This document shows positions 1-4,425 of a DNA stretch of 64,000 bases, in pieces. The stretch covers positions 42,443-106,442 of the forward strand of contig NZ_JAZGGG010000020.1 of the NCBI RefSeq assembly GCF_036480315.1. The letters run 5' to 3'. The first letter of the stretch is position 1. Every line of letters starts with the position of its first letter. The translations under genes were made by a program, and so were the position numbers. The notes beneath the pieces are model-generated. The model saw only the letters and a list, made by a program, of their open reading frames with translations. It was not told the origin of the DNA and did no database searches. This DNA is from Polaribacter sp. (GTDB lineage: Bacteria; Bacteroidota; Bacteroidia; Flavobacteriales; Flavobacteriaceae).

Positions 1-194
1 CAATTAGTCATTATTGGATGTTAGTTTATGGCATAAAATCGAAAAACCGTAAAGAAATCATTGGTCAGATTGTTCGAATTATTGCCTCTCTCCTATTTAC
101 TTTACTTTGGGTTCCTAAAGGAAATACTGGTGGTTCAGATGTTTCATCCATAAAATTAATGCCAATTAGAAAAGAATTGCAAAAATATTTTTAA
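1..194 (+). CDS. DUF3703-like protein, 3' part (truncated by window edge)
   Basis: Manual translation from nt 3: ISHYWMLVYGIKSKNRKEIIGQIVRII...VPKGNTGGSDVSSIKLMPIRKELQKYF*; the HxxML / E-x-x-GQ / GNTGG pattern is recalled as DUF3703. Confidence 0.7.
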   Translation, partial: ISHYWMLVYGIKSKNRKEIIGQIVRIIASLLFTLLWVPKGNTGGSDVSSIKLMPIRKELQKYF

Positions 195-252
195 ATTAAT
201 GCATCTTTTTAAAAGATTCTCTGTCTATTAAGTGAACATTAAAACTAATATT

Positions 253-357
253 ATGAAATATAAAAATGAGTGTACTTGTAATTGTGAAGGTTGTAAAACT
301 GGAGAATGCAAAAACTGTACTTGCGAAAGCTGTACTTGCAATAACTGTAGTTGTTAA
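253..357 (+). CDS. Metallothionein-like Cys-rich peptide (34 aa, 11 Cys)
   Basis: Manual translation MKYKNECTCNCEGCKTGECKNCTCESCTCNNCSC*; ATG preceded by A-rich Bacteroidetes-type initiation region; CxC/CxxC spacing; absent from ORF track (too short). Confidence 0.8.
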   Translation: MKYKNECTCNCEGCKTGECKNCTCESCTCNNCSC

Positions 358-372
358 CTAACAATTTTCTAT

Positions 373-418
373 CTAAACTTGTACAGTTTCTTTTTATAAG
401 ATACTGATACAAGTTTAG
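373..418. promoter_or_regulatory. Inverted repeat between the Cys-rich peptide and the sigma factor gene
   Basis: ctaaacttgta (373-383) / tacaagtttag (408-418), with inner cagt/actg pairing. Confidence 0.5.
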
Positions 419-441
419 TATAATGTATTTTTACAAATATT

Positions 442-981
442 ATGACCACAAAACAAGTTTGGACTTCCTATTCTGAAGATTTAAAACGCTTTATCATCAG
501 CAAAGTAAAAGATATTACAAATGCAGATGATATTTTGCAGGATACTTTTATTAAAATCCACACAAAGCTACATACCCTAAAAGATATTACAAAATTAAAA
601 TCTTGGTGTTTTACAGTAGCAAGAAATTCTATTTTAGATTACTGGAAATCTACGAATCAAACTTTTAAAATTGCTGATTTTGAAGCAGAAACTACAACAA
701 TAGAAAACCAACATACTGAACAAGATTGCCTACGTGGAATTCTTAAAAACTTACCAAAAAAATATAGAGACCCATTATTTCTTGCTGACATAAAAGGATT
801 AAAACAACAAGAAGTTGCTACACAACTAAAGCAGACATTACCAACTACAAAATCTCAAATTCAACGTGCAAGAAAATTGATTGCACAAGGTTTTATGGAT
901 TGTTGTGGGTATGTTTTAAATGATGAAGGAAACTTGGTTGGTGAAATTCAAGAAAAAGACGATTGCAAAGTTTGTAATTAA
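442..981 (+). CDS. sigZ: ECF RNA polymerase sigma factor, SigZ type
   Basis: Region 2 (ADDILQDTFIKIH, WCFTVARN), region 4 (LPKKYR...KSQIQRAR), C-terminal FMDCCG...DCKVCN. Confidence 0.85.
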   Translation: MTTKQVWTSYSEDLKRFIISKVKDITNADDILQDTFIKIHTKLHTLKDITKLKSWCFTVARNSILDYWKSTNQTFKIADFEAETTTIENQHTEQDCLRGILKNLPKKYRDPLFLADIKGLKQQEVATQLKQTLPTTKSQIQRARKLIAQGFMDCCGYVLNDEGNLVGEIQEKDDCKVCN

Positions 982-1032: not shown

Positions 1033-1722
1033 TTATTCTTTTGATTCAGGTAAATGAATACCTTTTTTTAATAAAGTAAATCCCATTGCAAGTAACCAAA
1101 CTACTTTTACGTGAAATATTGGTTTGTAGATTTCAAAATTATCTGGAATTACTAAAATAATACCCATTGCTATTAGACCAAAAGTTGCTGTAAACCAACC
1201 CAACCAAGTACTTACAATGTTCCATTTTATAAAAGCGTAACCAAGTAATACTAAACCAACACCAGAGAAAATACGTCCAAAACGCACAAAACAAGTTACA
1301 TATTGATTGGTAGATAAAATACTATCCATAAAAACGGCTACTTCTGTAGCAGACATTCCAGCTGTTTTACCAACTCCCCAAGCACCAAAATTATAAAAAA
1401 ACGCATTAGCAATAGCTAGAGTAAAAGTTCCTACTACAACCATTCCAATACCAGGATATATAACAACGTTATAAGGTGCTCCTGAAGTTAGAGGCAATAA
1501 AGCAAACATAGAGATACCCATCGTTACCCATCCAAAAATATGAATACGATACATCCAAATCCAATACCAAACGTTTTCACCAACTTTAGCAAAATCTTCG
1601 GCAACAATATATTCTCCTATATGATGAGATGATAATGCCCAACCAAACCATAGTAATATTGCTGCTAAAATAAACGCCCAACCAGTAAAACTAGTTTCGA
1701 AATTTTTTTTCATTATTCTCAT
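1033..1722 (-). CDS. Hypothetical multi-pass membrane protein
   Basis: 229 aa, about 6 hydrophobic segments; no family recognised with confidence. Confidence 0.75.
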   Translation of the reverse strand: MRIMKKNFETSFTGWAFILAAILLWFGWALSSHHIGEYIVAEDFAKVGENVWYWIWMYRIHIFGWVTMGISMFALLPLTSGAPYNVVIYPGIGMVVVGTFTLAIANAFFYNFGAWGVGKTAGMSATEVAVFMDSILSTNQYVTCFVRFGRIFSGVGLVLLGYAFIKWNIVSTWLGWFTATFGLIAMGIILVIPDNFEIYKPIFHVKVVWLLAMGFTLLKKGIHLPESKE

Positions 1723-1843: not shown

Positions 1844-3064
1844 TTGGATAGAAGATCATTTATAAAAAAAACTGTACTAAGCTCGTTTACAGCTCTTATA
1901 GGAACTGAAATTATCTTTGGCTCAAAAATTATTAATGGCTATACTCCTTTAGCAATCCAAGATCCAAATCCTTTTAAAATGTTCAATAAGAACAAGGGTA
2001 TGGTTGTTTTAAATGACAAACCTTGGAACATTGAGGCACAAGCGCATTTATTAGATGATAAGATTACTCCGAATTCATCAATGTTTATTAGAAATAACGG
2101 TAGAACTCCAGAGGAAATCAATCCAAAAACATGGACACTTACTATTGATGGAGAATCTGCTAAAAACAAAAAAACATATTCTTTAGAAGATTTAAAATCT
2201 AAATTTGAGCATCATACTTATCAATTAACTTTAGAATGTGGTGGTAATGGACGAGGTGAATTTGACCCACCAGCAAAAGGAAATCAATGGACTATTGGCG
2301 CTGTTCATTGTGCTTCTTGGACTGGAGTTCGTTTACGCGACGTATTAGAAGATGCAGGTATTAAAAGTGATGCTGTATATATTGGATACCATGCTGCTGA
2401 TACACATTTAAGTGGAGACCCATCAAAAGAGCCAATATCTAGAGGTTGTCCGATGCCAAAAGCACAACAAGATGAAACTCTATTAGCTTTCGGGATGAAT
2501 GGTAAAGATATTCCTTTAATACATGGTTACCCTTTACGATTAGTTGCTGGTGGTTGGCCAGCATCTGTATCAGGTAAATGGGTAAATAGAATTAGTATTC
2601 GAGACAAAGTGCATGATGGAACAAAAATGACAGGGACAGCATATAGAGTTCCTTGTAATCCAGTTGCTCCAGGGGAAAAAATAAAAGATGAAGACATGTG
2701 CATTATTGAATCGATGCCTGTTAAGTCTTTAATTACTTATCCAAAAACGGGTGCAACTATAAAAGAAGGAAAAACTTTATATATTAGAGGGCATGCTTGG
2801 GCAGGGGAATTAGAAGTTTCAAAAATGGAGTATTCAATAGACTTTGGTTCTACATGGAGCAATTGTTCTGTAGAAAAACCATCAAATCGTCTTGCTTGGC
2901 AACATTTTTCAGCGTCTATAAATTTTCCAAAAAAAGGATATTACGAAGTTTGGGTAAGAGCAACTGATACAAATAGCGTTGCTCAACCAATGCTTCTACC
3001 TGGTTGGAATCCTAAAGGATATTTAAATAATGCCTGTCATAGAATAGCAATAAAAGTTATTTAA
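1844..3064 (+). CDS. Sulfite oxidase family molybdopterin oxidoreductase (SorA/SoxC-like)
   Basis: Tat-like MDRRSFIKK, Mo-ligand ECGGNGR, HGYPLRL and GKW motifs, C-terminal dimerisation domain; TTG start. Confidence 0.92.
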   Translation: MDRRSFIKKTVLSSFTALIGTEIIFGSKIINGYTPLAIQDPNPFKMFNKNKGMVVLNDKPWNIEAQAHLLDDKITPNSSMFIRNNGRTPEEINPKTWTLTIDGESAKNKKTYSLEDLKSKFEHHTYQLTLECGGNGRGEFDPPAKGNQWTIGAVHCASWTGVRLRDVLEDAGIKSDAVYIGYHAADTHLSGDPSKEPISRGCPMPKAQQDETLLAFGMNGKDIPLIHGYPLRLVAGGWPASVSGKWVNRISIRDKVHDGTKMTGTAYRVPCNPVAPGEKIKDEDMCIIESMPVKSLITYPKTGATIKEGKTLYIRGHAWAGELEVSKMEYSIDFGSTWSNCSVEKPSNRLAWQHFSASINFPKKGYYEVWVRATDTNSVAQPMLLPGWNPKGYLNNACHRIAIKVI

Positions 3065-3537
3065 TGAGTAATCAAAAAGAGTTTCAAAAAAAGGTTAAAA
3101 AGGCAGAAAAAACAGCTTATTTCGCAATGTTTTTCGCTCTTATAGCTTCAGTATTACTTCTTTTTGCTGTATACAATCCTACGTTTTCAATTTTTGGAAA
3201 TGACAATTCTAATGTTGTTTATAGTGAGATAATTGAAGATAAAGTTGAAAACGGAATTCACTTAAGAACAGGTTTAATTGACGCTGAAGGTTTAATGACT
3301 GTAGTTAATAATTGTACAAATTGTCATTCAGCAAAGTTGGTTACCCAAAACAGAATGAATAAAGAACGCTGGAATGCAACAATAAAATGGATGCAAAAAA
3401 CCCAAGGTTTGTGGAACTTAGGTGAAAACCAAGAAAAAATTGTAAACTATTTAGTTACAAATTATCCAACTATTGCAAAAGGTAGGCGTTTAAAACTTGA
3501 AAACATTAACTGGTATACATTAGAAAATAAGAAATAA
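3064..3537 (+). CDS. Membrane-anchored monoheme cytochrome c (SorB-like)
   Basis: CTNCH heme motif, N-terminal TM helix, start overlaps the stop of the sulfite oxidase gene. Confidence 0.85.
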   Translation: MSNQKEFQKKVKKAEKTAYFAMFFALIASVLLLFAVYNPTFSIFGNDNSNVVYSEIIEDKVENGIHLRTGLIDAEGLMTVVNNCTNCHSAKLVTQNRMNKERWNATIKWMQKTQGLWNLGENQEKIVNYLVTNYPTIAKGRRLKLENINWYTLENKK

Positions 3538-3549
3538 GAAATAAGAAAA

Positions 3550-4425
3550 ATGAATAATTATTTAGATGCATTTGTAAATGCTTTTACAGGAACAGTAGAT
3601 TGGACATGGAAATCTATAATTTTTGATGTGCCTTGGTACACCAACTATTTTTGGGGACTTATTACTATTTCTTTGATCGTTTGGGTTTTAGAAATTGCCT
3701 TTCCATGGAGAAAAAACCAATCAATAATTAGAAAAGATTTTTGGCTAGATGCATTTTACATGTTTTTTAATTTCTTTATTTTCTCCATTGTTATTAGTGG
3801 GGTTTATGAAATTTTAGGTTTGTTTTTTGGCGAATTTAATATTACAGCAAAAAGTTTAGCGCTCTTTGATATTTCAGAATGGGCTCCGTGGTTACAATTA
3901 TTGGTCTTCTTTATAATTCTTGATTTTGTACAATGGTTTACACACGTATTATTACATAAATATAGTTTTCTATGGAGATTCCACAAAGTACACCACAGTG
4001 TAAAAGAAATGGGCTTTGCGGCACATTTAAGATATCACTGGATGGAAAATATCTTTTACAAACCTCTAAAAACTTTTGCAGTAATGCTAATTGGTGGTTT
4101 TGAACCTGAGCAAGCGTACATTGTTCACTTTATAACTATTGCAATCGGTCATCTTAATCATGCAAATATTAAAATTACTTGGGGCGTATTTAAATACCTT
4201 TTTAATAATCCAGTAATGCATTTATATCATCATGCATATGTTGTTCCTGAAGGAAGAAATGGTATGAATTACGGAATTAGCTTAAGTCTTTGGGATTATA
4301 TATTTAAAACAAATTACATTCCTGAAGATAGTGGAACTGTAGAAATTGGTTTTAAAGGTGATGATAAATTCCCTCAAGGTTTTATAGATCAAAATCTTTA
4401 TGGATTTAAAAAAGGTCAGGAATAA
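3550..4425 (+). CDS. Sterol desaturase / fatty acid hydroxylase family protein
   Basis: His boxes HVLLH, HKVHH, HLNH, HLYHH; TM segments. Confidence 0.9.
   Translation: MNNYLDAFVNAFTGTVDWTWKSIIFDVPWYTNYFWGLITISLIVWVLEIAFPWRKNQSIIRKDFWLDAFYMFFNFFIFSIVISGVYEILGLFFGEFNITAKSLALFDISEWAPWLQLLVFFIILDFVQWFTHVLLHKYSFLWRFHKVHHSVKEMGFAAHLRYHWMENIFYKPLKTFAVMLIGGFEPEQAYIVHFITIAIGHLNHANIKITWGVFKYLFNNPVMHLYHHAYVVPEGRNGMNYGISLSLWDYIFKTNYIPEDSGTVEIGFKGDDKFPQGFIDQNLYGFKKGQE

Follow-up and report, generated by a model that had tools for sequence, protein, structure and literature searches.

The first kilobase of the stretch of Polaribacter sp. DNA analysed here (64,000 nucleotides of contig NZ_JAZGGG010000020.1, G000:C20:42443-106442 in our numbering, hereafter the window) carries an overlooked gene for a cysteine-rich peptide, directly followed by the gene of a SigZ-like extracytoplasmic function (ECF) sigma factor with cysteines in its C-terminal tail. 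From our point of view, these two genes are best read as a self-regulated stress operon, in which a SigZ-type sigma factor and a thionein-like peptide would together sense and sequester metal, and we put the probability of this reading at roughly one half. Its starting points are a peptide gene that is real, a pairing with the sigma gene that recurs in other genera, a promoter that the pairs share and that is unique in the window genome, and a link of the same promoter motif to metal-exporter genes in some relatives. The window comes from a 3.06-Mb, 99.98%-complete Flavobacteriaceae genome, the named closest homologues of its sigma factor are from Polaribacter, and positions 1-1800 were read in detail (Table 1).

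An overlooked gene for a thionein-like peptide

The small open reading frame (ORF) upstream of the sigma gene is a real gene that annotation has missed. Over 22 genera all 11 cysteines are invariant, with both TGT and TGC in use in every cysteine column, and the cysteine spacing, the peptide length, one glycine and the C-terminal end are likewise kept. Mean pairwise differences per site amount to 0.21, 0.26 and 0.51 at codon positions 1, 2 and 3, respectively, and the other two sense frames are closed in 22/22 loci. In a related strain represented in a public sequencing run, four sites differ within the peptide ORF, three of which are synonymous (codons read by eye).

With 34 residues, 32% cysteine arranged in CxC and CxxC motifs, no histidine and a single tyrosine in the non-conserved N-terminus, the peptide has the features by which metallothioneins are operationally recognised. 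In a language-model atlas it lies nearest to unnamed clusters and then to eukaryotic metallothionein families, with scores of 0.58-0.82 that serve as a lead only. Ten peptides from different loci, including that of the window, were looked up exactly in a collection of 15 billion proteins and none was present; in the open-access literature, we found no paper describing a metallothionein in Bacteroidota or a thionein under ECF control. The peptides appear to form a new, phylum-wide and unannotated family of thionein-like micro-proteins.

A SigZ-like sigma factor with a conserved cysteine set

The sigma factor belongs to the ECF (group 4) sigma-70 proteins, with matches to PF04542 (residues 8-71) and PF08281 (residues 95-146) and a TIGR02937 score of 70.8 bits against a cut-off of 42.9. 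Its best NCBIfam models are both for SigZ, namely NF007215 (163.9 bits, cut-off 212) and TIGR02959 (154.2 bits, cut-off 168.65), and since both scores stay below the equivalog cut-offs we label the protein SigZ-like. The C-terminal cysteines (CC plus CxxC) to which the first-pass annotation had drawn attention are indeed there, and they are part of a set that is conserved in 42 diverse homologues, C155 being invariant and C96, C154, C175 and C178 each being present in at least 90%. In an AlphaFold2 model (mean pLDDT 91.8) the tail is predicted with confidence: the last helix ends in the CC pair, after which come a beta-hairpin and a turn with the CxxC. The cysteine-rich tail is not covered by any solved structure.

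Casas-Pastor et al. (PMC7826278) merged the SigZ-type (ECF24) and CorE-type (ECF44) sigma factors into group ECF238, which is characterised by a cysteine-rich tail of ~20 residues and the lack of anti-sigma factors, and proposed activation by metals in analogy to CorE2. The window sigma factor has both traits of this group, namely a short (~20-aa) cysteine-rich C-terminal extension and no neighbouring anti-sigma gene, in line with the Pfam and NCBIfam scans, which recognise no anti-sigma gene beside sigZ, as had been noted before from the sequence. In view of this proposal, the sensor half of the earlier idea, i.e. a metal sensor that works through its cysteine tail without an anti-sigma factor, has already been published. 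The tail of the window sigma factor may likewise sense metal directly.

The conserved unit comprises the peptide and the sigma gene

The first-pass annotation had proposed a three-gene module of DUF3703, thionein and SigZ. We surveyed one genome from each of 150 other Flavobacteriaceae genera, calling a SigZ-like gene at E <= 1e-30, and found such a gene in 24 of them. In 22 of these 24 genera, a cysteine-rich ORF of 33-42 aa lies directly upstream on the same strand, and in none of the 24 is DUF3703, the MarR-like gene or the membrane-protein gene of the window found beside the SigZ-like gene. Outside the window, DUF3703 adjoins sigZ in just four loci, from close relatives of the Polaribacter/Tenacibaculum type, with sigma factors 73-78% identical to that of the window, so that its presence reflects local synteny and the conserved unit consists of peptide and sigma factor. 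The three-gene module can thus not be upheld, and we likewise rejected the divergent MarR/GbsR-like gene and the convergent membrane-protein gene as parts of the module, as neither is kept beside sigZ elsewhere. A search of the open-access literature returned no paper mentioning DUF3703.

Of 400 genomes sampled across the phylum, 48 carry a SigZ-like gene, and a cysteine-rich ORF adjoins it, either up- or downstream, in 24 of 49 loci other than that of the window. The peptides can be grouped by their cysteine spacing. Variant A (CxCxCx2Cx4Cx2CxCx2CxCx2CxC) accompanies sigma factors at least 42% identical to that of the window, and variant B, with 14 cysteines and a CC at the end, accompanies sigma factors that are 31-41% identical. 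In variant C (family f31) the order is reversed and a gene for a 26-27 aa peptide lies ~85 nt downstream of the sigma gene; in variant D (family f34; L045 and L053) a peptide of 41-43 aa, made up mostly of CNC/CQC repeats, is encoded ~70 nt downstream of the SigZ-like gene. No further gene is conserved across the peptide-sigma loci, and the recurrent neighbours (Lrp/AsnC, DUF2807, DUF1801, TfoX and an RsmE-type RNA methyltransferase) are lineage-specific.

So as not to define the group by its sigma factor, the reverse test was also made, in which the variant-A pattern of cysteine codons was scanned over one genome per species for 185,579 species. This gave at least 80 loci; among the matches listed, 31 of 80 are (TGY)n trinucleotide repeats from many phyla, which were set aside as poly-cysteine artefacts. 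At least 49 are real variant-A peptide genes, and all of those listed belong to Bacteroidota, the majority to Flavobacteriaceae and some to Saprospiraceae and Cytophagales; carriers include strains of Polaribacter, Tenacibaculum, Winogradskyella, Olleya and Kordia. Among these listed matches, sigZ lies directly downstream in 38 of the 46 peptide genes that can be assessed, the other three of the 49 being located at a locus edge, with the promoter present. Peptide gene and sigZ hence co-occur far beyond what chance would give, whichever of the two is taken as the starting point, and had they not done so in other genomes the earlier proposal would have lost its basis. As far as tested, the pairing appears to be a feature of the Bacteroidota. 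One variant-A peptide gene without sigZ or SigZ-type promoter, in a Cytophagales metagenome-assembled genome (L154:430-516, minus strand), lies directly upstream of a gene that starts like an Fe/Mn superoxide dismutase.

A dedicated promoter and a hairpin between the two genes

In 18/18 variant-A loci the sequence TGCATCTTTTT-N12-GTCT(A/T) is found 51-56 nt before the ATG of the peptide gene, followed by an (A/G)TGAAC box. The layout of TGCATC, 16-17 nt and CGTCTA is of the ECF promoter type and not of the housekeeping type of Bacteroidota. A weight matrix run over the 3.06-Mb window genome returned a single strong site (32.8 bits; next best 19.9 bits), and in five other genomes the exact pattern occurs once per genome, always at the peptide-sigma operon, with one-mismatch matches being as common there as those of a reversed-pattern control. 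The motif varies with the sigma clade. In variant B it reads TGTATC or TGAATC, combined with GTCT or ATCTAC. In variant C, the sigma gene and the peptide gene each have a promoter copy in front of them, and in 5/5 variant-C genomes (3.2-3.9 Mb) these two copies are all that the pattern matches in the genome, with one mismatch allowed. From a promoter copy before each gene comes the strongest evidence that the sigma factor is autoregulated and that the peptide gene is a direct target.

From the ECF-like architecture of the promoter, its position and its co-variation with the sigma clade, we infer that it is read by the SigZ-like sigma factor. In the light of these data, two parts of the first-pass annotation appear well founded: that the thionein is the target of SigZ, given a conserved ECF-type promoter that precedes the peptide gene and tracks the sigma clade, and that the genes form a compact feedback loop, given the promoter copies before both genes where their order is reversed.

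The intergenic region between peptide gene and sigZ is predicted to fold in most loci. In 49 of 52 foldable variant-A regions the z-score is below -2 (median -5.35) and the sequences themselves differ. Many of the stems run into a T-run, and the distance from the stem to the ATG of sigZ is just 10-25 nt in most loci. As this leaves too little room for a promoter after the stem, sigZ is most simply transcribed by read-through. The hairpin at 373-418 is hence probably a leaky terminator, or else an attenuating or stabilising hairpin, that sets the ratio of peptide to sigma transcript, and read-through would yield much peptide message and little sigma message. In a subset of variant-B loci the stop and start codons overlap and there is no hairpin.

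Indirect evidence for a link to metal

In variant-A genomes, some of the one-mismatch promoter matches lie ~45-50 nt upstream of genes for histidine-rich exporters of the cation diffusion facilitator (CDF) family (PF01545). We checked the upstream regions of 29 CDF loci retrieved by a PF01545 search of 21 variant-A genomes. G103, G140 and G205 proved to have sites scoring 20.7-26.4 bits there, and G372 has a weak site; by chance, ~0.002 sites with 20 bits or more would be expected in such windows. When 16 further genomes were searched with the pattern, an exact site also emerged ahead of the CDF gene of G109, and all remaining one-mismatch sites in these genomes fall inside coding frames. Altogether, over the 21 other variant-A genomes scanned with the pattern, the only further promoter copies that are intergenic and suitably placed precede CDF genes in four genomes from four genera, exactly in G103 and G109 and with one mismatch in G140 and G205.

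The window genome has no PF01545 gene, as found by a search that recovers the family in 14/14 controls and in 19/21 related genomes; G340, a second genome of the same genus, is likewise without one. The peptide is therefore the only predicted output there. The predicted regulon thus consists of the peptide and the sigma factor, joined in the four genomes with a CDF site by a putative Zn/Cd/Co-type efflux pump.

Elsewhere in Bacteroidota, seven SigZ-like loci that have no peptide gene (L050, L055, L069 and L075-L078) have as a neighbour the gene of a heavy-metal resistance enzyme of the ArsI/CadI family (NF041414; 145 bits, cut-off 116). Together with the conserved cysteine set of the sigma factor, the CDF sites and these enzymes give indirect support to a metal as the stimulus. 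At L077, the cysteine-rich C-terminus of the ArsI/CadI enzyme ends just before the start codon of the sigma gene. A methyltransferase encoded beside five SigZ-like loci was considered as ArsM; it could not be identified as such, since its generic class-I scores are far below the cut-offs.

Proposed circuit and alternative explanations

Taken as a whole, the operon is probably a self-contained circuit for sensing and sequestering thiol-loving metals. According to this model, a SigZ-type ECF sigma factor of the ECF238 kind, which has no anti-sigma partner, would recognise the dedicated promoter TGCATC-N17-GTCTA, from which it would transcribe the gene of the 34-residue, 11-cysteine micro-protein and, via read-through of the conserved hairpin, its own gene. 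The sensor would be made up of five sigma cysteines, namely C96 at the start of the sigma-4 region, the CC pair in which the last helix ends and the terminal CxxC, and the ligand would be a thiol-loving metal or metalloid, most likely of the Zn/Cd type. Once activated, the sigma factor would give rise to much peptide and slightly more sigma factor; the peptide would bind the metal, the level of free metal would drop and the sigma factor would be switched off, such that negative feedback would be laid over positive autoregulation. In some relatives, the same sigma factor would also switch on a CDF efflux pump.

Several observations weigh against this model. The link to CDF genes is seen in just 4/21 other variant-A genomes and not in the window genome, and the promoter is assigned to the sigma factor on its architecture, position and co-variation with the sigma clade. 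The peptide matches no Pfam or NCBIfam family at E <= 0.1, the SmtA-type PF02069 included, and hence no metallothionein profile, and its language-model likeness to eukaryotic metallothionein clusters (0.58-0.77) is below the reliable range. Among the matches listed in the reverse test there are eight orphan peptide genes with no sigma gene within 2.5 kb and no promoter motif, and in one genome with such an orphan (G551) no SigZ-like gene rises above the scores of generic ECF factors; the pairing of peptide and sigma factor is thus strong without being obligatory, and the peptide can function under a different control. The CxC motif that is essential in CorE and CorE2 is missing from the window sigma factor, whose junction between regions sigma-2 and sigma-4 has the single C96 ('..DCL..'). 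The single public run with DNA of the window yielded only short contigs of related strains and no transcript ends. Lastly, cysteine sets like that of the sigma factor can also sense oxidants.

The last point leads to an explanation that keeps the same wiring and replaces the signal by thiol or redox stress (disulfide stress, hypochlorite or electrophiles), in which case the sigma cysteines, perhaps together with a structural zinc, would become oxidised and the peptide would serve as a sacrificial thiol buffer or redox sink. Redox sensing by ECF cysteine sets has a precedent in the disulfide sensing of SigK cited in PMC7826278, one orphan peptide gene precedes the superoxide-dismutase-like gene described above, and sequence alone does not separate the sensing of metals from that of oxidants. 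However, all extra promoter copies that were found sit before genes of CDF metal exporters, none of the 22 variant-A genomes that were checked has the motif at a thioredoxin, peroxiredoxin or methionine-sulfoxide-reductase gene, and it is ArsI/CadI enzymes that adjoin related sigma factors, so that we regard a redox signal as rather unlikely. One could also imagine that the peptide serves mainly to regulate the sigma factor and is not a bulk sponge, acting as a miniature anti-sigma factor or as a metal-transfer partner that touches the cysteine tail via shared metal or disulfides. This would account for the very tight linkage in both gene orders across the phylum, reminiscent of sigma/anti-sigma pairs, for peptide types that change along with the kind of C-terminal tail on the sigma factor (variants A, B, C and D) and for a predicted regulon of just the two genes in most genomes. 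A regulon of a sigma factor and its inhibitor alone would have no output, though, and orphan peptides occur without a nearby SigZ-like gene, or, in G551, in a genome with none above generic ECF scores. Moreover, anti-sigma factors are recognised by a helical domain of ~90 aa or the ZAS motif His-x3-Cys-x2-Cys, whereas the peptide has 34 aa, no histidine and no domain match, and the co-variation of tail and peptide is weak evidence given that related loci share clade labels. A role as regulatory partner is compatible with that as a sponge and does not exclude it; as an explanation in its own right we consider it improbable.

Two further possibilities concern the nature of the small ORF itself, and both can be set aside as very unlikely. 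The short, cysteine-dense ORF followed by a conserved hairpin directly before sigZ is what one would expect of a leader peptide, at whose cysteine codons stalled ribosomes control the hairpin such that sigZ reports the supply of cysteine or Cys-tRNA, and a 9-nt segment of the ORF (312-320) can pair with the region of the 5' arm of the hairpin. In variants C and D, however, the sigma gene comes first and the peptide gene follows downstream, in variant C behind a promoter copy of its own; the hairpin is missing from some variant-B loci, where stop and start codons overlap; orphan peptide genes exist; and the preservation of spacing, length, glycine and C-terminal end over 22 genera is unexpected for a leader. 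On the grounds of reversed gene order, separate promoter copy, orphans and conservation of the whole peptide, we rejected this explanation. The alternation of cysteine with threonine, serine or asparagine resembles some core peptides of ribosomally synthesized and post-translationally modified peptides, for example thioether- or thiazole-containing ones, and the ORF could accordingly encode such a precursor. There is no leader region, with just 4-6 residues before the first cysteine, and the neighbours are lineage-specific, no gene for a maturation enzyme, transporter or protease being kept nearby; for want of conserved maturation genes beside the peptide gene this explanation was rejected as well.

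Returning to the sense-and-sequester circuit, one could go further and speculate that the peptides represent a new thionein family of the Bacteroidota (26-44 aa, 9-14 cysteines and at least four spacing variants), each member being the dedicated and often sole output of a one-component ECF sigma factor with a cysteine sensor, and that the peptide would not only sequester the metal but, by competing or exchanging with the cysteine tail of the sigma factor, also act as a functional anti-sigma factor. We consider this extended claim possible and put it forward tentatively. If true, the control of a sigma factor by sequestration of its ligand would be a new design, and a sigma factor with only a ligand sponge and itself as output would be a minimal feedback loop that could be put to use as a model and also as a compact switch responding to metals.

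What appears to be new here are the hidden peptide family, the dedicated SigZ-type promoter, the minimal regulon and the connection to CDF exporters. SigZ-type (ECF238) sigma factors form a large group with almost no known targets, and on the present reading a concrete promoter together with a regulon of one to three genes would open the published cysteine-tail hypothesis to direct tests in cultured strains. A confirmed thionein function would also fill a gap, as no metallothionein is known from Bacteroidota, including the abundant, marine and bloom-associated Polaribacter and Tenacibaculum, and it would show what surveys of gene neighbourhoods miss when ORFs of less than ~40 codons go uncalled.

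Comparison with known systems

CorE and CorE2 of Myxococcus xanthus (formerly ECF44, now in ECF238) are metal-activated ECF sigma factors that work without an anti-sigma factor, and CorE2 controls a CDF pump and needs its cysteine-rich tail (PMC4937300, PMC8999054 for both proteins; PMC4937300 for the pump and the tail). The window sigma factor resembles them in its cysteine-rich C-terminal tail, a cysteine-bearing site at the junction of sigma-2 and sigma-4 and the lack of an anti-sigma gene, and a further likeness to CorE2 lies in the promoter that precedes CDF genes in four genera. According to Marcos-Torres et al. (PMC4937300, PMC8999054), however, CorE-like sigma factors are defined by a C-terminal cysteine-rich domain of 28-38 aa with six cysteines and by an essential CxC motif in the linker, whereas the tail of the window sigma factor holds four cysteines (CC ... 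CxxC) within ~25 aa. With four cysteines in the tail and one in the linker, the window sigma factor is thus not CorE-like in the strict sense. Two differences concern the regulation, as the main predicted target here is a thionein-like micro-protein, and as corE2 is not induced by metal, whereas the sigma gene described here sits in the operon of its own predicted promoter.

SigZ of Bacillus subtilis (NF007215 / TIGR02959; ECF238 subgroup 9, PMC7826278) is the best named family over the full length of the protein; the two have in common the CC pair in which sigma-4 ends and the lack of an anti-sigma factor. In nine Bacillaceae loci with a SigZ above the cut-off, the CC pair is present, the terminal CxxC is missing in seven, and no cysteine-rich small ORF is found nearby in any of the nine.

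In cyanobacteria and Pseudomonas, the small cysteine-rich metal-binding proteins SmtA and BmtA are switched on by an adjacent metal sensor, the repressor SmtB, and thereby form a sense-and-sequester loop. The operon of the window would resemble this arrangement in that a small cysteine-rich protein, here with a predicted role in metal binding, is encoded next to a dedicated regulator. It differs in the peptide, which lacks a PF02069 match and histidine ligands and has 34 aa compared to about 56 aa, and in the mode of control, which would be activation by a sigma factor here and is repression by an ArsR/SmtB-type protein there. With eukaryotic metallothioneins, such as the beta-domain of the vertebrate proteins or the fungal copper thioneins, the peptide has in common ~30% cysteine, CxC/CxxC spacing, the lack of a hydrophobic core and a similar size; this likeness is purely compositional and below the reliable range, and the binding of metal is a prediction made from the sequence.

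Gene layout and neighbourhood

The features that the first-pass annotation had described from the sequence, namely DUF3703, the thionein gene, the cysteine-tailed ECF sigma factor, the hairpin and the convergent gene, were all recovered by reading and by profile scans (Table 1). The hairpin after sigZ had been called a bidirectional terminator, which holds in part. The stem-loop and its role as a terminator on the minus strand stand, the T-run on the plus strand does not, as an A-rich sequence follows the stem there. With a proper T-run on the minus strand only, the terminator scan assigns the structure to the convergent gene alone; the minus-strand gene has in it a canonical terminator, and sigZ a hairpin that lacks a U-tract.

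Table 1. Features at the start of the window, given in window coordinates.
Feature	Position	Strand	Evidence
DUF3703 gene, 3' part (C-terminal 63 aa of 108)	3-194	+	PF12487, E 2.9e-21
Predicted ECF-type promoter: -35 TGCATC (200-205), T-tract (206-210), 12-nt spacer, -10 GTCTAT (223-228)	200-228	+
Conserved (A/G)TGAAC box, predicted transcription start / 5' end of the leader	232-237	+	Column block in an alignment of 18 loci
Unannotated gene for a 34-aa thionein-like micro-protein, 11 Cys	ATG253-TAA357	+
Stem-loop between peptide gene and sigZ, perfect 11-bp stem (373-383 / 408-418)	373-418	+
SigZ-like ECF sigma factor, 179 aa, ending in ...FMDCCGY...DDCKVCN	442-981	+
Stem-loop between the convergent sigZ and membrane-protein genes, 15-bp stem (990-1004 / 1013-1027)	990-1027
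Convergent multi-pass membrane protein, 229 aa, neighbour only	1033-1722	-	Weak DUF4386 similarity

The start of the DUF3703 gene lies upstream of the window, the full ORF of 108 aa being L009:11868-12194, and it is preceded by the divergent MarR/GbsR-like gene. For the membrane protein at 1033-1722, the match to PF14329 (E 0.021) is below the cut-off. Further downstream (1844-3537), a molybdopterin oxidoreductase of the sulfite oxidase type (PF00174 and PF03404) precedes a small protein that is anchored in the membrane and has a faint match to haem-binding (cytochrome c-like) proteins, and the two probably represent a SorAB-like pair. Next comes a membrane protein of the fatty-acid-hydroxylase family (3550-4425).

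About 3.5 kb upstream, a fused MeaB-like GTPase / B12-dependent mutase of 1143 aa is encoded (L009:4978-8409), which is of the IcmF type by architecture alone. In several other genera, the stop codon of this gene immediately precedes the peptide promoter, which we regard as shared synteny only. Elsewhere in the window genome, a different ECF-like motif (CGCAAC ... GCATCT) is found at G000:C9:2075 on the plus strand before a small ORF, ~1.6 kb before an ECF sigma gene (C9:3670-4110), and this motif may be the own promoter of that sigma factor.

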